Positions 327 to 52,925 of a stretch of 64,000 bases of DNA are shown here, piece by piece. Position numbers and translations under genes: made by a program. The stretch comes from a virus (lineage: Duplodnaviria > Caudoviricetes). Every line of letters begins with the position of its first letter. Within the stretch, counting starts at the first letter, position 1. The notes under the pieces are model-generated. The model was not told the origin of the DNA, did not search any database, and saw nothing but the letters and a program-made list of their open reading frames with translations. The DNA lies in IMG/VR virus record IMGVR_UViG_3300005330_000014, positions 64,001-128,000 of that record; one strand, 5' to 3'.

Positions 327-756
327 TATTTATTCCCCTCTTAGATTTTTAGATTTCAAGATAAAATTAGTTAATTAATTAGTTACTTAACTAAGTCATT
401 GAACATGATGCCAAATCGAATGATTGAATCAGAACATAGAAATTTGAAATTTGTTAAACTAAAATTAGCAAACAACCATTTAGTATTATGTTTGATTGCG
501 TTAAAAGACCATTTGAGCAGAATATATTTACGATACATAATTTAGTTTATTTGGTTATTAGTAAATTAATGTTTAGCCAGCCAATTATCAATGACCGCGC
601 GGATTTCTTTATAGTTATATTCTAAATGTTCAAAGTAAGTTACAACGTCCAATTCCGCCCAACCGTCGCAAAGCATTCCTTCCAGTAATTCAATTGGATT
701 CAAGCAAGATGATTTTGGTTGCATAAAAAAGTTTAGCAGCACAAACAGAAAGGAAA

Positions 757-987
757 ATGCAATTTGTTAATTATAAAGGAGGGAAATGTTGTTGCTGCGA
801 TTATGATAGATATTTAGGAGCGTTGGAATTCCATCATGTTGACCCTACTCAGAAAGATTTTGAATTATCTAATATTAAGTGTTACGTTTTAGAAACTATA
901 CAACAAGAATTAGATAAATGTATTCTACTTTGCTCTAATTGTCATCGAGAAGTGCATGGAGGTAACATATTAGTTATTGTAGAATGA
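757..987 (+). CDS. HNH endonuclease (short, possibly N-terminally truncated)
   Basis: CCCCDY...ALEFHHVDP...ELDKCILLCSNCHREVH, a typical phage HNH/Zn pattern; stop codon overlaps the tRNA-Lys 3' end. Confidence 0.85.
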   Translation: MQFVNYKGGKCCCCDYDRYLGALEFHHVDPTQKDFELSNIKCYVLETIQQELDKCILLCSNCHREVHGGNILVIVE

Positions 988-1058
988 ATCCGGTTGGATT
1001 TGAACCAACGTAAGGCAACTTAAAAGGTTGCTGCTAGACCGGACTTAGCGACGGATTC
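985..1058 (-). tRNA. tRNA-Lys(UUU), no encoded CCA
   Basis: Cloverleaf: GAATCCG/CGGATTC acceptor, GCTA/TAGC D stem, GCAAC-CTTTTAA-GTTGC anticodon arm, GTTGG-TTCAAAT-CCAAC T arm. Confidence 0.93.
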
Positions 1059-1085
1059 TTTTGAAATTGTTATTGTTTACTTAGT

Positions 1086-1496
1086 TTAGTTATTTACTGA
1101 ATATTCTCCGTAAACATAATTATTAGAACTTGCCACGCGAACCATTTCCCGGCCAAGCTCTTTGGCAAATCGGATCACGCTTTCAATTTTCTTGAATCGG
1201 CGCTTGGGTCCGTCGTACGTCATCGGCAGCACGGGGACAAGTTGCCCTTTTACCTTTTTAACTACCAGCACGAGAGGCTTTTTCTTTTCGTGATTAGTTA
1301 AAGATTTAATACGATCCAAGTAAGATTCTTGCGAAAGGCGGGACTGAATCACGGAAGGCCGAACAATCGGCAAAATGCGACGTTGCAAATTCCACGGCTT
1401 TTGCTTGTCGCTGGGATCAACGGAAATCATTTTTTCCTCGAAACGACGTTGCGCGGAAGGGATGCGATTAGTAGGGATAAACATGCGAGTGCTCAT
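1086..1496 (-). CDS. hypothetical basic protein
   Basis: ORF track; directly downstream of a promoter. Confidence 0.75.
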   Translation of the reverse strand: MSTRMFIPTNRIPSAQRRFEEKMISVDPSDKQKPWNLQRRILPIVRPSVIQSRLSQESYLDRIKSLTNHEKKKPLVLVVKKVKGQLVPVLPMTYDGPKRRFKKIESVIRFAKELGREMVRVASSNNYVYGEYSVNN

Positions 1497-1505
1497 AGTG
1501 TCATT

Positions 1506-1533
1506 ATTTTAGCATCTCAATTCCTACTGTCAA
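1506..1533 (-). promoter_or_regulatory. sigma70-like promoter
   Basis: TTGACA-N16-TAAAAT with extended TG and A-rich upstream AAAATAAATC. Confidence 0.8.
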
Positions 1534-1598
1534 GATTTATTTTAAAGATTTTTAAACCCTATTTTTGACTCTATTTCTTTGTTTTGTTTGTTTAAATC

Positions 1599-1790
1599 TT
1601 ACCATCGAATCAGTCTTCCTAAAGATACTAGCAATTCACTTAATTCGTTCGCGCGGACACATTCTGAAATTACTTCTTTAGTATAAGGATCACGGACAAC
1701 CCAATGAACAGGCCCGGTCGGATACTTAATTAACCAATTTTTAACTTCTTGGATTTCTGAGCGGCCATATCTAATCCAGTGACTATCCAT
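1599..1790 (-). CDS. hypothetical protein
   Basis: ORF track; co-oriented, tightly packed. Confidence 0.7.
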   Translation of the reverse strand: MDSHWIRYGRSEIQEVKNWLIKYPTGPVHWVVRDPYTKEVISECVRANELSELLVSLGRLIRW

Positions 1791-1807
1791 TACGTTGTTT
1801 ATTTAAA

Positions 1808-2098
1808 TTAAATTCCAAGAGGTTTAACCAATCCAAATCTTTTAATTATTCCAATCAACTGTTCTTTACTTAAAGCGTTAACAATACTGGCTTGCTGTGG
1901 CGTGCATCCGCCCGAGCCTAAAATTTTTTGCCTCAACATTAGTAAATTACTTTGTTCAAATATGGCGGGATTTATTGATGGAATTTTAAAAGTGAAAAGA
2001 TGCATATTACTTATTGTTCTTATTCTTATTGAGTGCTTAAAGAATTCCCTTGCAATGTCCGGGGCTGCCGTACTGAATTTCCCTATCTTTCCATTCAA
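1808..2098 (-). CDS. hypothetical protein
   Basis: ORF track; co-oriented. Confidence 0.65.
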   Translation of the reverse strand: MNGKIGKFSTAAPDIAREFFKHSIRIRTISNMHLFTFKIPSINPAIFEQSNLLMLRQKILGSGGCTPQQASIVNALSKEQLIGIIKRFGLVKPLGI

Positions 2099-2510
2099 CC
2101 CATTCCTTCCAAAGATTTACTAATTCATCAACTTGTTTCTGAGATTCTTCTTGCGCTTTGATGATATTATCAGTCAATTTTGCTTCGTATGCTTCCCCTT
2201 CTAATTTGAGCCGTGTATCAACCCTTACTTTTCTAATCAAATGGTTATCACGATATTTACTGATGATATGAACGCGCAATTTTCCTATTTTGAGTAGTTT
2301 TTCAGCTAAAACATTCTCTTCATCATCAAATACATCAGTAGATACGTCAACGTCACTAACTTCAATTATACTATCCAAGTCAATATGCCGCCCGAAGACT
2401 TTAACGATACGCGCTGGGCGCTCTGGTTTTTCAGTATTCATATTTTTATTTATATTTGTTTGATTGCAAGTGCAACCTGTTCCATCATCTTCTCCCTGAC
2501 AGCAACTCAT
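2037..2510 (-). CDS. hypothetical protein
   Basis: ORF track; co-oriented, overlaps the next gene. Confidence 0.7.
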   Translation of the reverse strand: MSCCQGEDDGTGCTCNQTNINKNMNTEKPERPARIVKVFGRHIDLDSIIEVSDVDVSTDVFDDEENVLAEKLLKIGKLRVHIISKYRDNHLIRKVRVDTRLKLEGEAYEAKLTDNIIKAQEESQKQVDELVNLWKEWVEWKDREIQYGSPGHCKGIL

Positions 2511-2561
2511 AAATTTGATTAGTTTTAGTTAGTTATTGATTGTTGATTGTTAGTTATTAAT

Positions 2562-2939
2562 TTAACAGGAGCCGGGGCAATATCCTTTTTGGCACCACAA
2601 TAATCCCTTTTCTAAATCCTTAATTAATTTCTTCATTTGATCTTCATTCATTGTCACATTTTCTTTCCCGCCTAAACCTAAAACCACATACGGTTCTTCA
2701 TATCCGCTAGCAACTAAACTAATTGTCTTATCTAAACTAAAATTTTCTTCATATTTGCATCCTGTTTCATATTCACATTTCCATTTCTCTAATTCGCGCA
2801 CAACCCAACAATCGCAGCCTCGCGAACAAATCTTTAATCCATAAATTACCTTTTTAGGATGCCGACATTTCTTCAAATCTGATTTTAACTCTGTTACTTG
2901 AGTTACTGTTAAATGATCGTTAATATTATAAGGTTTCAT
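2562..2939 (-). CDS. hypothetical Cys-rich protein
   Basis: ORF track; several Cys clusters. Confidence 0.7.
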   Translation of the reverse strand: MKPYNINDHLTVTQVTELKSDLKKCRHPKKVIYGLKICSRGCDCWVVRELEKWKCEYETGCKYEENFSLDKTISLVASGYEEPYVVLGLGGKENVTMNEDQMKKLIKDLEKGLLWCQKGYCPGSC

Positions 2940-2970
2940 AATTGAGTTTTAAAAAGTTAGTTAGTTAAAG

Positions 2971-3384
2971 TCAAACAATAAAGAACATCACGGGCACCAA
3001 TTCTTGGAGCATTTTATTAAATCTTAGAACATTATTAATATGAGTTTCAGTATACTCTTTGTTATTAAAATCTCCATTATCTACCATCACTTGGAAGTCG
3101 CGTGCCAATCTTCCAATATTATTAATTTTAAGAACTAGATTATCAAAACCCAGCGCGCGGAGTTCGTCTCCAAAATATTTAACTAACATTTCGCATGGAG
3201 AGGCAAGATTATGCCACATAAAGCCGCCGAAATCCCCGGACTGAATATCCGCGCCGATTCGCTCGGGCAACAATTCAATTTCTCTTTTAATATGATTGGC
3301 GTAACGATTGCCAATGATGATGACGGATTCGCGCGGGGCAGTTGTATTTGTGCAATAACGAGTAGTTGGTTGATTAGTATTCAT
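2971..3384 (-). CDS. hypothetical protein
   Basis: ORF track; co-oriented. Confidence 0.75.
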   Translation of the reverse strand: MNTNQPTTRYCTNTTAPRESVIIIGNRYANHIKREIELLPERIGADIQSGDFGGFMWHNLASPCEMLVKYFGDELRALGFDNLVLKINNIGRLARDFQVMVDNGDFNNKEYTETHINNVLRFNKMLQELVPVMFFIV

Positions 3385-3422
3385 TAGTTTAGTTTGGTTT
3401 TTTAGTTAATTGTTTTTATTTG

Positions 3423-3800
3423 TTATTCCCCAATTTGTTCTAGTTTGTGATCCCAATATTCAATAAATGTAATGAATCTAGTAGGGATTACATCGCACAG
3501 ACAACTGTTAAAAACTTCATCATAAAATTGATCAATTGTTTTCACCATATACTGAATGAAGTTTTTTAAATCAGTATCATCATATTGAATTAGCGCAATA
3601 TTATGCAAATTTTCTTCCAAATCAGCTAAATCATTAATTGTATATTCCCTATATTCATGATTCCGGGGCAAATAACAAACGTTGCGGCCCTGAAATCCAA
3701 TTTTTTCACGCAATTTATCCGCCGCGATTGCTACTTGGATTAATTGACGCTGTTCCTGTTTAGAAACAGTTAATTGTGATTGTGATTTCTTGGCTTTCAT
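3423..3800 (-). CDS. hypothetical protein
   Basis: ORF track; co-oriented. Confidence 0.75.
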   Translation of the reverse strand: MKAKKSQSQLTVSKQEQRQLIQVAIAADKLREKIGFQGRNVCYLPRNHEYREYTINDLADLEENLHNIALIQYDDTDLKNFIQYMVKTIDQFYDEVFNSCLCDVIPTRFITFIEYWDHKLEQIGE

Positions 3801-3825
3801 ATTATTTGTTATTATTTCTAGTTAA

Positions 3826-4320
3826 TTAGTCAGTTATTTCGTTGGTTATCAGAAGTATATTCCGGGCGATTTCTCTATAGTTATTAATAAATTGTTTATA
3901 AGTCGCACTAATTCTTGATAGGTTAAATAAAGCATTAGTAATTGAAGATCGTTTATTGCCACGGAATATCTTAAATCCCCAACGATAAATTTGATCATTT
4001 AGTTTATCTAGTTTGGCTTGAACTTCATTAGTTAATTGAAATCCATGACAAAAATAAGAGCGGCACATGATAGCTTTAACAGTGCATCCGCGCGGGCCAA
4101 GATACGGGCAGCCGCCGCAACAAAATAGAGCGCCACCATTATGCTTATCTTGTTTGCGCCCGCATTTACCCTCACAAACATTACAATAGTTATACTTTTT
4201 CACATAACCCACAGCAATCTTATACAAACGTTCAAATACTCTATTAAGTAAGTAGTATTGACGTTCCAGTGGCAATTTACTCCACCGCTTTAAAATTTGT
4301 TCAATAGTCGGGCGGCTCAT
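3826..4320 (-). CDS. Cys-rich putative metal-binding protein
   Basis: CNVCEGKC...CCGGCPYLGPRGCTVKAIMCRSYFC. Confidence 0.6.
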   Translation of the reverse strand: MSRPTIEQILKRWSKLPLERQYYLLNRVFERLYKIAVGYVKKYNYCNVCEGKCGRKQDKHNGGALFCCGGCPYLGPRGCTVKAIMCRSYFCHGFQLTNEVQAKLDKLNDQIYRWGFKIFRGNKRSSITNALFNLSRISATYKQFINNYREIARNILLITNEITD

Positions 4321-4332
4321 TGTGTTAGTTAG

Positions 4333-4593
4333 TTAATTTATTAAATCTGATTCATCGTAAATCTTCGTAACATCCAAATTATCCAATATCCACCGAATCA
4401 TTATGTCTTTATTTTTAAAGGAAATCGGCGGCATCGGAAGGCTTGCAATAGCTAAATCACTTGTTCTATTAAAACAAAGGGTATTGTTAATATCGTGCCA
4501 ATATTCCCCAAAGTATCTATTATTAACAATTAACTCAGTATAACAATAAGGATTACTTCCTTGTAGTTTTTTGTGAGTAATTGAAAGCATCAT
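4333..4593 (-). CDS. hypothetical protein
   Basis: ORF track; co-oriented. Confidence 0.7.
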   Translation of the reverse strand: MMLSITHKKLQGSNPYCYTELIVNNRYFGEYWHDINNTLCFNRTSDLAIASLPMPPISFKNKDIMIRWILDNLDVTKIYDESDLIN

Positions 4594-4601
4594 ACTGATT
4601 A

Positions 4602-4829
4602 CTATGTTTGATAAAATTCGCGCGTAGATTGTTCAGTAAATTTTTCCGCCGTATTTTCCTTCAGTATATGATTCGCGCGGCTAACTATACAAGTATCTCG
4701 ATGCTTATAACCATCGTTTCTATATTCTAAATACCCGCAAGATAAGCATTCCATATTTTCACTATCATAACATAGTGATCCGTTGTTTTCTACTATTTCT
4801 TCAAGAATTTTTCTAATTTCTTCATTCAT
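4602..4829 (-). CDS. hypothetical protein (CxxC...H..C)
   Basis: ORF track; ECLSCG...HRDTC. Confidence 0.7.
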   Translation of the reverse strand: MNEEIRKILEEIVENNGSLCYDSENMECLSCGYLEYRNDGYKHRDTCIVSRANHILKENTAEKFTEQSTREFYQT

Positions 4830-4970
4830 AATATTAAGTTTAGTTAGAATGCGCGGCTACAAATCTGTTAATATTACTACTTAATTTAGTTAAGAATTCC
4901 GAGATTGTTAAAAGTAGTAAACGGTACGGTTTGGGAAGCATTTAATTAATTAGTTAAATAATTGGTTAAT

Positions 4971-5318
4971 TTATTGAGTAGCTAAAATGTTATGATTTTT
5001 CTTATCCCCGTTTAATCTAGCCACCATTTCTAGAGCCAACGCATAAGTCTCGCGGGATTCAAAATGACTGTCACAAACTTCATAAATTTCCCGCGCGGGC
5101 ATTTGGTCAATTTCCCGACTTTCCGCGTCTAGCAAAGTTACAATCTCATTATTAACCCATTGTTTTTCAGTTAATCCGGCGAGTTCCAGTTCTCGCGCGG
5201 ACGGAACATAAGAACCTGAATTCCACAACTTAATATCATATTCAAATCCTTCATTGGTAGTGATTTTGATAATCGTGCCGTAGTACTTACCTTTTAATTC
5301 TTGAAGAACTGCTTTCAT
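4971..5318 (-). CDS. hypothetical protein
   Basis: ORF track; co-oriented. Confidence 0.75.
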   Translation of the reverse strand: MKAVLQELKGKYYGTIIKITTNEGFEYDIKLWNSGSYVPSARELELAGLTEKQWVNNEIVTLLDAESREIDQMPAREIYEVCDSHFESRETYALALEMVARLNGDKKNHNILATQ

Positions 5319-5330
5319 ATTATTAGTTAT

Positions 5331-5894
5331 TTACTTCTTTGAAGTTAAGATGCCGTTCAATGGGACTGTGGCGCATTTCACACAGCACACAGTAATATTT
5401 TTAATATGATTATTACCTAATTTATTAATTCGGACATATTTTCCCTCCCGGTCGCAACGTTCGCCATTGCGCCCGGTTTTACAGCGTAATGTGCCAAGCT
5501 GGGCGCAAATCTTATCCGCTTCATCGTCATCTTGAAATGGGCGGAATCCGTCGCGAAGCTGAGTCCCTTTAGGACAAATCAACTTCACTCGCGGAGTTTT
5601 AGTTTTAAATGTTTTATAAGCTGCAAAAATTTCATCATGCTCAGGGAAATCAACAATTTGAAAATCCTTATCAATAAGCAGTTTAGTTAGTTCAGCATTC
5701 TTGCGCCGGTCGCCGGGAGTCTTAGGCGTTTGAATAATAACACTATTAATAGAAATTTCCTTGCCATTCTGCACAAAACGAATTACCCTTTTATTCTTTT
5801 TATTAGTAAAATCGGGAAGGGTGGCATTGTAAGTTTTTCCTACTTTAAATGGAGTGCCCCAGCGATTAAAGGATGGAAGTAGTTGGATTTTCAT
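5331..5894 (-). CDS. hypothetical protein with C-terminal Cys cluster
   Basis: ORF track; co-oriented. Confidence 0.75.
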   Translation of the reverse strand: MKIQLLPSFNRWGTPFKVGKTYNATLPDFTNKKNKRVIRFVQNGKEISINSVIIQTPKTPGDRRKNAELTKLLIDKDFQIVDFPEHDEIFAAYKTFKTKTPRVKLICPKGTQLRDGFRPFQDDDEADKICAQLGTLRCKTGRNGERCDREGKYVRINKLGNNHIKNITVCCVKCATVPLNGILTSKK

Positions 5895-6061
5895 GATTTA
5901 ATTATTTAGATTAAGTTGATTATAGTTGATTACTTGGCTTGTGTATCAATTACAAATTTGCCAAACAAAACTTCAAAACGTGCGCCCTTAAATTGTTTAG
6001 CTTTGTCTTGTTTGGACAGACGATTGCGACGAATAACAGGTTTAGAATTTTTCATAATCCA

Positions 6062-6090
6062 ACCTTAAACCCTGAGCCGCGCGGCGTCAA
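6062..6090 (-). promoter_or_regulatory. sigma70-like promoter, likely leaderless; palindromic GCCGCGCGGC in the spacer
   Basis: TTGACG-N17-TAAGGT, then 6 nt to an ATG at 6055 (41-aa ORF). Confidence 0.7.
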
Positions 6091-6118
6091 GATTTAATTT
6101 TGCCTTTGTTTATGGAAA

Positions 6119-6454
6119 TTATAGGACTTGAAATGCCTCGGGCAGCTTAATTGTTTCTCGTTTATTATCTTGTTTGATTTGTTCTGCGAGCCATTTATTA
6201 AAATTCAAATCATAATCATCACCCAACTTTTCTAGTTTGCCATTAGAATCTTTTTCGGGAACAATTGGTTTTTTATTTTCAATTCTATATATTACTTCAT
6301 TAAAGAAGTCCGCGCCGAATCGCGTGGAGAAAATTAAGGTTTTTTGATAACGATTATGAAATTTAATTTTTAGTTTAACCCAATTGACCCCATAATTCTT
6401 ACCACTTTTATTAAGAATGGGTAAAGCTGTTTTGGCGAATTGAAGAGGATTCAT
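6119..6454 (-). CDS. hypothetical protein
   Basis: ORF track; co-oriented. Confidence 0.75.
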   Translation of the reverse strand: MNPLQFAKTALPILNKSGKNYGVNWVKLKIKFHNRYQKTLIFSTRFGADFFNEVIYRIENKKPIVPEKDSNGKLEKLGDDYDLNFNKWLAEQIKQDNKRETIKLPEAFQVL

Positions 6455-6458
6455 AAAA

Positions 6459-6881
6459 TTATTTAGTTAACAAAATTCTAATCAATTCATCAGTTACTTC
6501 ACTCAATGAGTGGCCGCGCGAGGCATTCAATTTCAATGGATTATGAGTAACCATTTCATCATAAACTTTTTGACTGACAGTATCAATTGACTTTCTATTA
6601 AGATAATCAACGCACGGATTATCTAGAAAGAAATAAATTAATTGTTTACCGCAAGAACATTGCCAGTGCGATTGGAAAATAGACGCCCATACATAACCAT
6701 TATTAATCCATACTTTAGTTTGTTCTAAGCTAGGATAATGATAGTAATTGGGATGTTCAATATATTCTTTTAATTCTGATACTTGCCCGAAATGTTTGCC
6801 ATAACCAATACATTTAAAATCGCAAACATGAGGGATTGGCGGGGCCGGACGGAAGAAACTGAGAAACTTTTTAAGTGTCAT
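6459..6881 (-). CDS. hypothetical protein
   Basis: ORF track; co-oriented. Confidence 0.75.
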   Translation of the reverse strand: MTLKKFLSFFRPAPPIPHVCDFKCIGYGKHFGQVSELKEYIEHPNYYHYPSLEQTKVWINNGYVWASIFQSHWQCSCGKQLIYFFLDNPCVDYLNRKSIDTVSQKVYDEMVTHNPLKLNASRGHSLSEVTDELIRILLTK

Positions 6882-6894
6882 AGAATTAGTTTAG

Positions 6895-7185
6895 TTAACT
6901 TTGCCGTAAGGCTTCATCCACTTTAGTAATATCCCCCGAAAGCAATTCTGCCTCAAAAGGTAGCGGAGCAATACTATCCAGCAAAAACACTTCCAATTCG
7001 TGCAGATTCATTTTAAATTTTGAATCAAAAGAGTGATCTTTTTTAAGTTTAGTTAGTTTATCACGTAATCGTTTAACGCGGCAGGCCACGTTACAAACAA
7101 TCGCTGGGGCTTTCCGCGCGATTTCTTCATCAGGGGAATAAGTCCGCGCGCCGATAGGATCAGTTATTTCTTCTTTAGTTTTCAT
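6895..7185 (-). CDS. hypothetical protein
   Basis: ORF track; co-oriented. Confidence 0.7.
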   Translation of the reverse strand: MKTKEEITDPIGARTYSPDEEIARKAPAIVCNVACRVKRLRDKLTKLKKDHSFDSKFKMNLHELEVFLLDSIAPLPFEAELLSGDITKVDEALRQS

Positions 7186-7187
7186 AA

Positions 7188-7478
7188 TCAGTCTTTTTTG
7201 GGCGGCATTGCAAATCCAACTATTTGATTATCCAGTCCTCGCGTCTGAAGATTTTTAGCTAAATGAACAATCGCGCCCATAGCTTCTTCGCTAAAAGCGG
7301 TAGTATGTGAATCAATTTTCTTTGTTCCGTCAAACTGCCGAGCCAGCGAGCGGGTTTTAATAATAAATTCAATTTTGCCATTTCGCGTTTTGTGCATTGT
7401 GACGCCCAGCCGCCGATTGAGCATTTTAATTACAGCGCCCGAGAATGAATTTGGCTTTAATTTACGTGGAGTTTTCAT
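7188..7478 (-). CDS. hypothetical protein
   Basis: ORF track; co-oriented. Confidence 0.7.
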   Translation of the reverse strand: MKTPRKLKPNSFSGAVIKMLNRRLGVTMHKTRNGKIEFIIKTRSLARQFDGTKKIDSHTTAFSEEAMGAIVHLAKNLQTRGLDNQIVGFAMPPKKD

Positions 7479-7495
7479 AATATTATATTTTTAGT

Positions 7496-7873
7496 TTATT
7501 GATTTGTTTCTCTGAATGTTTCTAAATGGCTAATCTTAAGTAATTCTCTAAAACTTAAATGAGGATTAAATACTCTAATTCCTTCAAATTTAAATCCTTC
7601 CATGATTTCATGTTCAATGGTTGCGCGGAATGCTGCATAAGCCGTTTTAACTATTTCATCTTCTGACATGTAATCACTAAGATACCATTTGCGCCCGTTC
7701 CATGTTTTCAATTCCCCGGATTTAGTACATTTACTTTGATATTTACATTGAATGAATATCCGCCCAGTTTTAGGATGTTTCAAATCGCGGGCAACAAAGA
7801 AAGTAACTGGAGTATCTAAAACGCTGGCAGAACATAATTGAACAATCGCGCGGATATCTTTAAGAGTTTTCAT
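7496..7873 (-). CDS. conserved phage hypothetical protein
   Basis: GRKWYLSDYM...EIVKTAYAA...EHEIMEGFKF..IRVFNPH pattern recalled from phage proteins. Confidence 0.75.
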   Translation of the reverse strand: MKTLKDIRAIVQLCSASVLDTPVTFFVARDLKHPKTGRIFIQCKYQSKCTKSGELKTWNGRKWYLSDYMSEDEIVKTAYAAFRATIEHEIMEGFKFEGIRVFNPHLSFRELLKISHLETFRETNQ

Positions 7874-14909: not shown

Positions 14910-14938
14910 ATTCCAACAGATTGCGCGCGAACGGTCAA
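14910..14938 (-). promoter_or_regulatory. possible promoter
   Basis: AAATC-TTGACC-N17-TGGAAT; weak -10; CGCGCG in the spacer. Confidence 0.4.
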
Positions 14939-16909: not shown

Positions 16910-16934
16910 AGATTTGTTTTGTTAGTTAAAGAAG

Positions 16935-17008
16935 TGTCACTGGCGGAATTTGAATCCGCAACGTTCGGATTAGAAATCCGATGCTCTATCCAGTTGAGCT
17001 ACAGTGAC
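16935..17008 (-). tRNA. tRNA-Arg(UCU), no encoded CCA
   Basis: GTCACTG/CAGTGAC acceptor, GCTC/GAGC D stem, TCGGA-TTTCTAA-TCCGA anticodon arm, TTCAAAT T loop. Confidence 0.95.
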
Positions 17009-18073: not shown

Positions 18074-18316
18074 TTACTTTAAATAATCATCTTCATCCAC
18101 TTTAAAATACATGTAAGCATCTGGATAATTAATTACTTGTTCGGCCTCAGAAACCAGCCGCGCGGCCCATTCATCCTCGCTAATTTCAGGTTTATGAGCA
18201 GAAATTTGATTAATTATTTGACCAGTTTGAGCATCAAATTTAAATGTAGCATTCAAGGAATTTAAATCGATGTTATAAGTATGTTTATTATTATTTGGAT
18301 TATTTAGATTGTCCAT
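18074..18316 (-). CDS. hypothetical protein
   Basis: ORF track; co-oriented. Confidence 0.7.
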   Translation of the reverse strand: MDNLNNPNNNKHTYNIDLNSLNATFKFDAQTGQIINQISAHKPEISEDEWAARLVSEAEQVINYPDAYMYFKVDEDDYLK

Positions 18317-41187: not shown

Positions 41188-41496
41188 TTAATATTCTTCT
41201 TTTTCGTTCACCCATTTAAAATCCCAAGTATTTATTAAGAAAATGGTAGAGCATTTCTCGCATTTAAGTTTCATCGCAGTGGGACGGATAGAAATAGAAC
41301 AATTGCCGCGCGGCGGCTCCCATTCCCCGTTAGGCACTTTTTCAATTACTAGATGCGCCCCGCCAATATGTTTATTTTGCTTACAACGCCAAATTTTAAT
41401 TAATTTAGGTAAATTTTTAAACCAAAGTAATGATCCAACATACCAAAGACGTAAATTTAGTTCTAGTAACTTTGTTTCAAGTTTAAATTTATTCAT
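41188..41496 (-). CDS. hypothetical protein
   Basis: ORF track; co-oriented. Confidence 0.7.
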   Translation of the reverse strand: MNKFKLETKLLELNLRLWYVGSLLWFKNLPKLIKIWRCKQNKHIGGAHLVIEKVPNGEWEPPRGNCSISIRPTAMKLKCEKCSTIFLINTWDFKWVNEKEEY

Positions 41497-47751: not shown

Positions 47752-48147
47752 TTAGTTGAAATTGATTTCTTGGAACTCCCCATTTTTGTCTGTAGCAAAT
47801 ACTCTTTTAAAGTTTAACGAAGTAATAACACGGGCACAGAACTTGCATGGACTTGAAGTATTAATTTTTTCATTTCTATCTACTCTAACGACAGCCATTG
47901 TATAACCCGTGTAATCTTCTCTACGGCCACGCAATATTGCCATCAATTCAGCATGACAACCGCAATCTTCATAATAATTATATTCTATATTTTTAGGATG
48001 GCTTTGTTTCTTATTATGAGCCAGAGAAATCATTTTCCTCTTATTATAAATTGCGGCTACGTGGAAACAACGGCTATCCCCACGCATTTCGGGAGCTAAA
48101 GCTAATGCAATTTCTTTAAGTTTTTCAAGATTTTTAGGAGAATTCAT
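47752..48147 (-). CDS. cytidine/dCMP deaminase-fold Zn protein
   Basis: HAE...SSPCKFC. Confidence 0.85.
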   Translation of the reverse strand: MNSPKNLEKLKEIALALAPEMRGDSRCFHVAAIYNKRKMISLAHNKKQSHPKNIEYNYYEDCGCHAELMAILRGRREDYTGYTMAVVRVDRNEKINTSSPCKFCARVITSLNFKRVFATDKNGEFQEINFN

Positions 48148-48184: not shown

Positions 48185-49231
48185 ATGATAATATATACCA
48201 AAGAATTAGCAAATCAACTTGTAGAGCTACAGAAAAATGTATCTTTTAAGGAAGCAAGAAAAATTTTAAATATCAGTTACTATCAAGCTAGGAAATTATT
48301 AATAAAATTTGGATTTAAAACCGTTCAAAAAAATAAGCCTTTAATCCCCATTCAAGAAAATTACTTTGAAATTATTGATACCGAAGATAAAGCTTATTTT
48401 TTGGGATTTATAGGGGCAGATGGGTGTATTAATGATAAACACGCTTTATCTATTCACTTACAAAAAGACGATCAGATTATTCTAAAGCAGTTTTTGCATT
48501 ATACAAATAGCCAACATACTATTAAATTCGGAAAAACTAAGAACACAACCAGTTCTTTTCCTGATTTTTTTGAGTGGGCTATGATTTATATCTCTAGGAA
48601 AAATTTCGTACAACATTTATTACAATTGAATATTACCCCTCGTAAGAGTCTCACATTAATTCCTCCGCCAGAAAATAGCATTCCCAATCATTTAATGCAT
48701 CACTTTATAAGAGGTTACTTCGATGGAGATGGCGGGGCTTATTTCAATAGTAACAGTAAAAACATTAAAGGCAAAACTTTATATCAATTTAATGGCTCTT
48801 TCACGGGAACCAAGGAAATGTTAACTTATATTGAGTCGTATTTACATCAACAAGAAATAAAAACTTCTTGGACCAAAAGAATGAAAGATAATTCAAACAA
48901 TTATACTTTATTGATACATGGTAATATACAGGGAACTAAACTATACGAATATATGTATCAAAATCATACAATATGTTTAGACCGTAAATTAATTCTATTT
49001 AAAAAATGTAAAGATATAGCAGAATCAGTTATTAACAATAGAACAAGTAAATATAGATTTATTACAAAATATCCTTCCATTAAGTCTCCTTGGTCTTATC
49101 AATTTAAAATTAATAAAAAGAAATATAGCGGATATGGAGCAACCGAAGAAGAATGCAAAAAGAATCTTAATGCAAAGTATTTGGAAATATCTGGAATAAA
49201 TTTAGGAGAGGGGCTGCGTAGCTTAATTTAA
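48185..49231 (+). mobile_element. free-standing LAGLIDADG homing endonuclease with N-terminal HTH and C-terminal AP2-like segment
   Basis: KAYFLGFIGADG and HFIRGYFDGDG; opposite strand to all neighbours. Confidence 0.9.
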
Positions 49232-52448: not shown

Positions 52449-52925
52449 TTACTTTAATTTGTCCACGCGGATTAATTCGGGATTTTCAAAAATATTCCCG
52501 ACAATCTCTAATCCCATATATTCAACTACCTCTTTCAATATTTCTTTAATTGATTGTTCGGGGTAAATCCCTGTTGCGTCATGTATTTTTTGTTTATAAC
52601 CAATAGCCGCGCGGCCAAGCATCAAACCAAATCCGCAAAAATACTTTTCTCCAGCTCCAAACTCACAACTTACATCGTCAAATTGAACAGGTGTTTTACC
52701 ATTTAAACCAACACCACATTCAGCATTACATTTAAGTAAATCGCCCTCATAAATCTCTTTATTGTTTTTATCTAGTAATCCAGTGAATTGTTGAATTACG
52801 AATTCTTCGTGTTGCTGACCGTTTGTGGTTAGTTGATATAACTCTTGGAAATCCGCAGGAAAGTACATTAACGAATTACCTTCATAATTATCAAAACACC
52901 AAACTCTAAATTTAATTGTTTTCAT
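52449..52925 (-). CDS. YopX-family protein
   Basis: IKFRVW...QFTGLLDKNNKEIYEGD...EIVGNIFENPEL. Confidence 0.9.
   Translation of the reverse strand: MKTIKFRVWCFDNYEGNSLMYFPADFQELYQLTTNGQQHEEFVIQQFTGLLDKNNKEIYEGDLLKCNAECGVGLNGKTPVQFDDVSCEFGAGEKYFCGFGLMLGRAAIGYKQKIHDATGIYPEQSIKEILKEVVEYMGLEIVGNIFENPELIRVDKLK

Follow-up and report, generated by a model that had tools for sequence, protein, structure and literature searches.

What does it mean that the hexamer GCGCGG and its complement CCGCGC recur throughout the DNA of an AT-rich phage? The question is raised by a 64,000-nucleotide stretch (hereafter the window; 34.6% GC) of a caudoviricete virus, IMG/VR record IMGVR_UViG_3300005330_000014, which covers positions 64001-128000 of a 95%-complete genome of 208,233 bp. 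The phage codes for a DnaE-type replicase, a DnaB helicase, a class II ribonucleotide reductase and a T4-type terminase, and nearly all genes of the window, which contains 95 open reading frames (ORFs) by crude longest-ORF calls, lie on the minus strand. Our analysis uncovered two superimposed DNA-level regimes in this genome, namely a packing of G and C into short clusters and a purge of restriction-type palindromes; GCGCGG is the commonest spelling that they permit, and its excess is a by-product of the clustering as filtered by restriction avoidance.

GCGCGG/CCGCGC occurs 106 times in the window, against 12.06 ± 3.54 (maximum 22) in dinucleotide-preserving shuffles and 3.4 per 64 kb, or ~0.4 per 8 kb, from base composition. 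The over-representation pointed out in an earlier note on this DNA is thus real, and its estimate of fewer than one expected copy per 8 kb agrees with the compositional figure. All 18 places that it listed between positions 595 and 7853 bear the motif (22 matches when palindromic sites are counted in both orientations), four of them as part of the 8-base palindrome CCGCGCGG; at 14921, where it listed a further copy, there is no match. Within ORFs we counted 86 copies, compared with 12.8 after pooled synonymous shuffling, 17.4 after per-gene synonymous shuffling and 9.5 after shuffling of the codon order. Codon-preserving shuffling, named beforehand as the refuting check, therefore leaves the enrichment standing (z 18-25), and since it survives both the synonymous and the codon-order shuffles it is not a matter of codon or dipeptide usage. 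As had been claimed, the motif falls in different reading frames, indeed in all of them, as well as in intergenic DNA; its occurrence at like density in coding and intergenic DNA and its strand symmetry likewise mark it as a feature of the DNA itself.

What did not hold up is the reading of GCGCGG as a discrete signal, for every pure-G/C word is enriched in the window, by 10-30x for hexamers and by as much as several hundredfold for octamers, and the spelling is free. The window has 450 pure-G/C runs of at least 6 bases, or 7.0 per kb, compared with 0.7-0.9 per kb in phage T4 and in a Flavobacterium metagenome-assembled genome (MAG; a sample of 96 kb, 33.5% GC) that is introduced below. Runs of 6, 7 and 8 bases number 140, 128 and 93 against 47, 16 and 6 expected, with lengths 1-3 being slightly depleted. 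Across the whole genome there are 1,276 runs of at least 6 bases (6.1 per kb overall, with 6.2 in coding and 5.4 in intergenic DNA), which begin at all three codon positions and, on the sense strand, consist of 53% G and 47% C. Their spacing is exponential, with a coefficient of variation (CV) of 1.02, ruling out a periodic or phased placement. Runs of at least 5 bases hold ~18-20% of all G+C here and 5% in T4, the Flavobacterium MAG and cluster-free relatives of the phage. Hairpin or terminator stems can be dismissed as their general role, because nearby complementary partners of runs are no more frequent than in a permuted null (107 versus 110 ± 8): some runs do form terminator stems, where the earlier note had placed part of the motif copies, but only 24 of the 144 intergenic clusters (17%) have such a partner. 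Around 6077, which had been assigned to a promoter spacer, a simple sigma-70 scan found no promoter.

The occurrence of G and C is strongly dependent on neighboring bases. At 4-fold degenerate sites the probability of G/C rises from 0.16 without a G/C neighbor to 0.75-0.8 with at least three G/C on both sides, whereas in T4 (50 kb, 34% GC) it is flat at 0.14-0.24 and the run lengths are geometric. The encoded proteins permit a run of at least 6 bases at 2,599 places, of which 44% are filled, the corresponding share in T4 being 5%; codons with G or C at both of their first two positions (SSN codons) have a third-position G/C fraction (GC3) of 0.45 versus 0.21-0.25 in other codons. The pressure extends to the proteins, where it biases the choice of adjacent residues: Ala, Gly, Pro and Arg neighbor each other more often than in shuffled order (z 9.2; -0.9 in T4). 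In a single-base map, the retention of C is highest with G as its 5' (0.43) or 3' (0.34) neighbor, and T and A neighbors behave alike (0.21); the map is strand-symmetric, G mirroring C on the other strand, and the steps rank as GC > CG > CC/GG. At silent sites the A-to-G value 5' of C is 0.415 and the T-to-C value 3' of G is 0.427 (0.46 and 0.48, respectively, in cluster-free relatives), and among the dinucleotides AC/GT are the most depleted and GC the most enriched. Long runs are preceded by T in 68% and followed by A in 64% of cases; this T...A preference is present at every codon position and in intergenic DNA, and hence we rejected it as a codon artefact. Intergenic run lengths display a shoulder at 6-8 bp followed by a drop (41, 37, 32, then 14 runs). 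The footprint of a TC- or WRC-type DNA deaminase was also rejected, given that the values for T and A as 5' neighbors are identical and that T|C is the commonest run boundary (523), A|C being the rarest (173).

The prominence of this particular spelling follows from the second regime. In 208 kb, five of the eight pure-G/C hexamer palindromes are wholly missing (GGGCCC, GGCGCC, GCCGGC, CGGCCG and CCGCGG), whereas all 28 pairs of non-palindromic pure-G/C hexamers are present in 15-324 copies. Altogether 20 hexamer palindromes are at zero, including TTCGAA (0 versus 68), CCGCGG (0 versus 39-74), AGATCT, GGATCC, CCATGG, CTGCAG and GTCGAC, and about seven more are strongly depleted, with 1-6 copies; among the 4-bp palindromes, GATC, GTAC and GGCC stand at 0.54, 0.55 and 0.65 of expectation. 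A/T-only palindromes are unaffected, and the G/C-rich survivors mostly bear CGCG (CGCGCG, GCGCGC, TCGCGA, ACGCGT), the exceptions being CCCGGG, GCTAGC and CGTACG. The general remark of the earlier note that phages usually avoid such sites is thus borne out for restriction-type palindromes, and the severity of the purge argues that the phage DNA is exposed to restriction. Its consequence for the cluster spelling can be seen at CCGCG (485 occurrences on both strands), which is followed by C 324 times, by A or T 161 times and by G never: with CCGCGG forbidden, a G/C run can continue from CCGCG only as CCGCGC, and GCGCGG/CCGCGC, CCGCGCGG and the 10-base palindrome GCCGCGCGGC consequently stand out. 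Only at this step from CCGCG is GCGCGG/CCGCGC in excess of its sub-words, by 1.73x over its 5-mers. CCGCGCGG, the commonest surviving 8-base G/C palindrome and one of at least 72 8-base cluster spellings, occurs 57 times in the genome (20 in the window) against 58.3 predicted from its sub-words (ratio 0.98), and GCCGCGCGGC occurs at 17 sites against 14.2 predicted from its 9-mers (ratio 1.19). These 17 sites have no flanks in common, and five of them are intergenic; the reading varies with the frame between AAR, PRG and RAA. Both palindromes as selected units were rejected on the match with the sub-word prediction. Other 10-base G/C palindromes occur at most once each; CGCGCGCG, i.e., (CG)4, is found once against 9.5 expected and GGCGCGCC not at all against 5.2. 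The lack of other long G/C palindromes is due to forbidden hexamers within them or to a depletion of their own.

The clustering is confined to a small part of the phage's wider family. We found no close relative among GenBank phages by megablast, nor in single-protein scans of IMG/VR, and the relatives compared are fragments that do not include the closest DnaE homologs, P0002 (71%) and P0003 (63%). Metagenomic homologs of DnaE fall into a graded series of identities. By a run index (observed over expected pure-G/C runs of at least 6 bases), those at 51-70% identity have the trait and those at about 40% do not. L092 (51%), L093 (55%) and L100 (70%), the first two of which are near-identical (99.2%), have indices of 7.8-8.4, rising to 15-19 for runs of at least 7 bases, at 30-32% GC; they use CCGCGCGG and are without the same palindromes as this phage. 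In 80 IMG/VR loci at ~37-43% DnaE identity the index is mostly near 1 (median ~1.25, maximum 3.5). Thus, a small clade of AT-rich, DnaE-encoding large phages packs G/C into clusters, mostly of 5-8 bp, at ~6-7 per kb. Two loci at ~40% DnaE identity, L047 and L014, have intermediate indices of 3.5 and 2.5 and very high GpC odds ratios (1.52 in L047) without a CpG excess; the trait may exist there in a partial form.

L100 lies on a 30.6-kb contig that is binned with the Flavobacterium MAG, a weak hint from binning alone of a Flavobacterium-like host. The MAG has an index of 0.98 and 160 copies of the palindromes forbidden in the phage against 200 expected; as it does not show the clustering, the trait belongs to the phages and does not stem from that cellular environment, and we accordingly rejected a host-generic mutational environment as its source. 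The preference for the GpC step is already seen in cluster-free relatives (C after G 0.48, G before C 0.46). The CpG step, by contrast, is clade-specific, with values for G after C of 0.40 and 0.37 in the clade versus 0.21 in the relatives, and CC/GG steps shift the same way to a smaller extent. The CpG odds ratio is 1.17-1.29 in the clade, 0.85 in cluster-free relatives, 0.90 in the Flavobacterium MAG and 0.97 in T4, the corresponding TpG/CpA values being 0.88-0.91, 0.97, 1.07 and 1.08. Relative to cluster-free relatives, CCGG, GCGG, GCGC, CGCG, GGCC and GGCG are all up 2-10x, TCGA is unchanged and AGCT is halved; CpG- and GpC-centered tetramers rise only with G/C on both flanks. The clade excess is thus a composition-level cooperativity with no word-specific target.

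Individual clusters turn over. Between this phage and L100 or L092 the aligned ORFs have ~50% amino-acid identity, and 4-fold sites are saturated (33-35% identical). In 104 comparisons of sites at which both proteins permit a cluster, drawn from these two non-independent relatives, each phage fills 39-51% of the sites, filling agrees only weakly between the phages (non-significant odds ratios of 2.35 and 1.93), and the spelling differs at 22 of the 27 co-filled sites. The clusters sit in aligned codons without indels, with an amino-acid conservation of 0.53 at cluster codons versus a background of 0.51. The aligned codons, weak concordance and free spelling together imply that clusters are neither individually conserved sites nor insertions. 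A Chi-like or packaging signal, as suggested in the earlier note, is excluded by the same lack of positional conservation and freedom of spelling along with the random spacing (CV 1.0) and the balanced orientation of GCGCGG/CCGCGC in the whole genome (161 versus 163 on the two strands). In 10-kb bins the saturation of permitted sites varies threefold along the genome, from 0.23-0.24 at 10-30 kb, a region of the terminase and neighboring large ORFs that are probably late genes, to 0.54-0.65 at 50-100 kb, where small minus-strand early-type genes prevail, including much of the window. This difference may reflect codon selection linked to expression, a mosaic origin or a bias that differs by region. 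An attempt to polarize single-nucleotide differences between L092 and L093 yielded few differences, clustered at a mosaic junction. These two strains, which come from sister samples, also differ by a ~600-bp segment with a small ORF and divergent junctions, a mosaic gain or loss of a gene.

Several genes were examined as controls or as candidate causes, and their coordinates are collected in Table 1. The LAGLIDADG gene, in which the earlier note had seen no GCGCGG, indeed has zero copies, and its single run of at least 6 bases, versus about 6.5 expected, is consistent with a recent mobile arrival. The adjoining small deaminase was dismissed as the driver because a homolog occurs in the cluster-free relative G009 and it thus does not track the trait; it has no sequence match in PDB, and its single-sequence fold (pLDDT 58) is too poor for a structure search. 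All seven phage tRNAs (Lys-TTT, Arg-TCT, Gly-TCC, Asn-GTT, Leu-TAA, Cys-GCA and Met-CAT) serve A/T-rich codons, which argues that translation is not adapted to the cluster codons. Searches of the 95%-complete genome, run with positive controls, found neither a C5-methylase (PF00145) nor Vsr (PF03852), which removes this pair as a cause; nor did they find a thymidylate-synthase-like hydroxymethylase (PF00303) or TGT/DpdA (PF01702), whose absence, together with the palindrome purge, argues against base-replacement hypermodification (5-hydroxymethylcytosine or 5-hydroxymethyluracil, 7-deazaguanine).

The genome does code for an orphan TSPPY amino-methyltransferase, whose nearest relatives of known structure include M.PvuII and further N4C enzymes. 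A shorter homolog is found on the L100 contig, along with a second methylase ORF, and none in the four complete cluster-free relatives. It is conceivable that this enzyme has a CGCG-type target, which could not account for the clusters without CGCG; general CpG or GpC methylation was rejected, since the purge has removed most palindromes of that kind and the excess follows the G/C flanks and not the word. The loss of the replicative proofreader in the clade, another candidate, is refuted by a divergent DnaQ-like ORF that lies upstream of DnaE in all four cluster-rich sequences (this phage, L100, L092 and L093) with invariant DEDDh residues. It is too divergent for the Pfam RNase_T profile. An exonuclease is likewise present in three of four cluster-free relatives. 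In this clade the exonuclease precedes a fused PHP-core DnaE, and in L054 three separate ORFs code for the PHP, exonuclease and Pol III alpha core regions. The DnaE gene of L100 is split by a homing-endonuclease-like ORF.

Table 1. Coordinates of the features discussed (positions are those of the window unless a genome or contig is named)
Feature	Coordinates	Strand	Remarks
CCGCGCGG	595..602		in coding DNA
CCGCGCGG	starts 595, 4088, 5091, 6077		four of the 18 motif places within 595-7853
GCCGCGCGGC	6076..6085		intergenic copy
GCCGCGCGGC	18157..18166		in minus-strand gene, reads ..AAR..
GCCGCGCGGC	41305..41314		reads ..PRG.. in plus-strand ORF (crude gene call); shows frame independence
GCCGCGCGGC	52606..52615		in minus-strand gene, reads ..RAA..
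tRNA-Lys(TTT)	985-1058	-	
tRNA-Arg(TCT)	16934-17008	-	
Small CDA-fold zinc deaminase	47752-48147	-	131 aa; HAE + PCxxC; adjoins LAGLIDADG gene; virus-only family
LAGLIDADG homing endonuclease gene	48185-49231	+	amid minus-strand genes; 28.7% GC
Canonical dCMP deaminase	genome 139958-140299		the other of two CDA-fold deaminases
Beta-class TSPPY amino-methyltransferase, orphan	genome 166658-167893 (L009:18658-19893)	+	N6_N4 methylase family; ~270-aa insert
Divergent DnaQ-like exonuclease ORF	genome 178841-179491 (L010:10841-11491)		just upstream of DnaE; found by iterative profile
Fused PHP-core DnaE	genome 180726-184142 (L010:12726-16142)		
Shorter TSPPY methylase homolog on L100 contig	G001:C163:28095-29096		
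Replicase region of L100	L100:9998-15103		DnaE gene split by 326-aa DUF559/NUMOD3 ORF
PHP / exonuclease / Pol III alpha core ORFs	L054:9962-13909		three ORFs
Segment differing between L092 and L093	L092:7889-8485		~600 bp; small ORF

What maintains the clusters? We tentatively favor, with less than even confidence, a neighbor-dependent fixation bias acting on the phage's own duplex DNA over selection for the clusters themselves. Under such a bias, G/C lying beside G/C would be lost more slowly, or A/T beside G/C would be converted more often, with a strong A/T pressure stripping isolated G/C; it would arise as phage DNA is replicated and repaired beyond the reach of host mismatch repair, and the individual clusters would not be functional sites. 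We prefer this reading because there is no site conservation, the spacing is random, the spelling is free, the footprint extends to the proteins, the index is graded across relatives and the polarity matches. Indeed, in Escherichia coli mutation-accumulation lines A:T to G:C transitions are favored with a 3' C:G, the more so without mismatch repair, with context effects that extend to ±6 bp and are about 2-fold in size (PMC13250602), and the polarity observed here, i.e., AC/GT depletion, GC enrichment and A-poor 5' flanks, agrees with that context.

Several points weigh against this proposal. The G/C level of ~0.8 inside clusters needs ~19-fold protection or an active A/T to G/C flux, and the reported ~2-fold effects stand against this roughly 19-fold shift. 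The GpC signature is shared with cluster-free relatives that have the same replicase family, and the replicase is therefore not sufficient to account for the trait. The clade has kept its proofreading exonuclease, every DEDDh residue included. As enzymes that might bias repair, a UDG (uracil-DNA glycosylase), an HhH-GPD glycosylase and MutS were sought in the phage genome, again with positive controls, and are as absent as Vsr, a C5-methylase and TGT. Moreover, the orthologous replication module has 5.7 clusters per kb here and 5.8 in L100 at background GC of 0.305 versus 0.275, a constancy that looks more like maintenance by selection. A defined footprint is also suggested by the T...A flanks and by the fall in run numbers beyond 8 bp, both of which extend to intergenic DNA.

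The main rival holds that the G/C stretches are clamps, which natural selection keeps for a physical function on duplex DNA that does not depend on their exact sequence. They might limit the breathing of the duplex and thereby guard it from deaminases, Argonaute-type chopping and nucleases directed at single strands or at AT-rich DNA, or they might mark self versus an AT-rich, cluster-free host. This would fit the equal cluster density and base fraction of this phage and L100 despite their different background GC, the silent-site G/C of ~0.8 inside clusters against the A/T pressure of the genome, the presence of the 6-8 bp length shoulder and the T...A flanks in intergenic DNA too, and a pressure strong enough to alter proteins. 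The candidate host-lineage MAG is without clusters (0.98), so they do distinguish phage from host DNA. Nearest-neighbor stacking strength ranks as GC > CG > CC/GG, an order that the observed steps track. However, clamps sit uneasily with the exponential spacing, which enforces neither coverage nor phasing, with unconserved positions at which amino-acid conservation equals the background, and with a saturation that varies threefold along the genome and is lowest (0.23) in the presumed late module at 10-30 kb. They have no known reader protein, and we know of no defense system that is blocked by G/C clamps. On balance we regard selected clamps as possible though rather unlikely; a fuller version, in which clamps at ~1 per 150 bp and constant density limit duplex opening or mark self and are maintained by the N4-type methylase or a repair activity, strikes us as unlikely.

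Shielding by base modification, as the earlier note had envisaged, would have the SPPY (N4-cytosine-type) methylase protect cytosines in G/C contexts such as CGCG from deamination, to which N4-methylcytosine is resistant, so that they escaped C-to-T drift and accumulated. That part of the idea which calls for a modifying enzyme stands, in that a clade-specific methylase exists, with a homolog on the contig of a cluster-rich relative and none in four of four complete cluster-free ones. CpG is up and TpG/CpA down only in the clade, four of the five CGCG-bearing G/C-rich palindromes are retained as against a purge of 24 of the 27 others, and CGCG is 1.43x over its Markov expectation. The single target word does not stand, because the excess follows G/C flanks generally: CCGG, GCGG, GGCC, GGCG and CGCG all rise 2-10x, and the CGCG-free CCGCCG, GCCGCC and CGCCCG are among the commonest words. 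Most CpG and GpC palindromes are purged, including CAGCTG, for which cognate protection is the N4-methylation of the GpC cytosine, and the co-occurrence of methylase and trait is a single phylogenetic contrast. We hence consider shielding improbable. Far more so is the selection of a discrete word, GCGCGG or (G)CCGCGCGG(C), as a binding, Chi-like, packaging or HIP1-like unit: the 57 and 17 copies of the two palindromes amidst other 10-base G/C palindromes at one copy at most, the same top word in relatives and the 5 of 17 intergenic sites would speak for it, but the copy numbers are at 0.98 and 1.19 of the sub-word prediction, there is no flank conservation, frame preference, orientation bias or positional conservation, and the other palindromes are missing through forbidden hexamers. 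Least of all, and with practically no chance of being right, codon, codon-pair or dipeptide usage might produce the G/C words. The raised GC3 of SSN codons (0.45 versus 0.21-0.25) and the enriched Ala/Gly/Pro/Arg pairs speak for such a cause, but the excess persists under synonymous and codon-order shuffles, in all frames, at equal intergenic density and symmetrically on the strands, and the phage tRNAs serve A/T-rich codons only.

Comparison with known systems separates the two regimes further. The palindrome layer is ordinary in kind, though extreme: as in the restriction-site avoidance of other phage genomes, the loss is palindrome-specific with composition-matched words remaining abundant, and it fully accounts for the prominence of GCGCGG/CCGCGC and CCGCGCGG. 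However, avoidance removes words and leaves the G/C clustering unexplained, and the Flavobacterium MAG does not avoid these words. The clustering, in turn, resembles HIP1, Vsr enrichment, GC-biased gene conversion and mitochondrial GC clusters only superficially, with each failing at least one defining test. Like the cyanobacterial HIP1 (GCGATCGC), the phage has a G/C-rich 8-base palindrome every few kb, in all frames and in intergenic DNA, and an orphan methyltransferase; unlike it, the enrichment is not of one specific word, the palindrome has no excess over its sub-words, and C5-methylase and Vsr are lacking. Our literature search found iterated palindromes in cyanobacteria only, with no phage case. 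With GC-biased gene conversion and Vsr repair the clusters share a G/C fixation bias on all site classes, a protein footprint, a CpG excess and a TpG deficit, but their scale is 5-8 bp and not that of conversion tracts, and the phage has no Vsr, C5-methylase, MutS or mismatch glycosylase. The GC clusters of yeast mitochondria are mobile inserted elements of tens of bases, mostly non-coding. They too are short G/C-rich islands in a very A/T-rich genome, whereas the phage clusters are of 5-8 bp, lie in frame in conserved proteins and have neither indels nor shared flanks; the term GC clusters led in our literature search to mitochondria only, and no phage description was found. The mechanism that we favor has a parallel in the mutation spectra of Pol III replication when mismatch repair is lacking (Jago et al. 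2026, PMC13250602). The polarity is alike, and the phage has a DnaE-type replicase and no MutS; the differences are the ~2-fold size of the reported effects, the presence of the GpC signature in cluster-free relatives too, and the CpG shift of the clade, which is not described for those spectra.

A practical corollary is that single over-represented words, such as GCGCGG or CCGCGCGG, should be tested against their sub-words and forbidden neighbors before they are called binding sites. The underlying habit of these phages is unusual. It is confined to one clade, is missing from the likely host lineage and operates at a scale of 5-8 bp on double-stranded DNA. If it is a bias of mutation or repair, it would constitute an unusually strong natural case of neighbor-dependent sequence evolution, and would distort methods of codon-usage analysis, host prediction and k-mer-based binning. 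If it is selected, it would point to an unrecognized physical requirement or defense-evasion strategy of AT-rich phage DNA; clamps, if that is what the clusters are, would be a composition-based alternative to base hypermodification, by which a phage could tell its DNA from that of the host or withstand attacks aimed at A/T-rich DNA.

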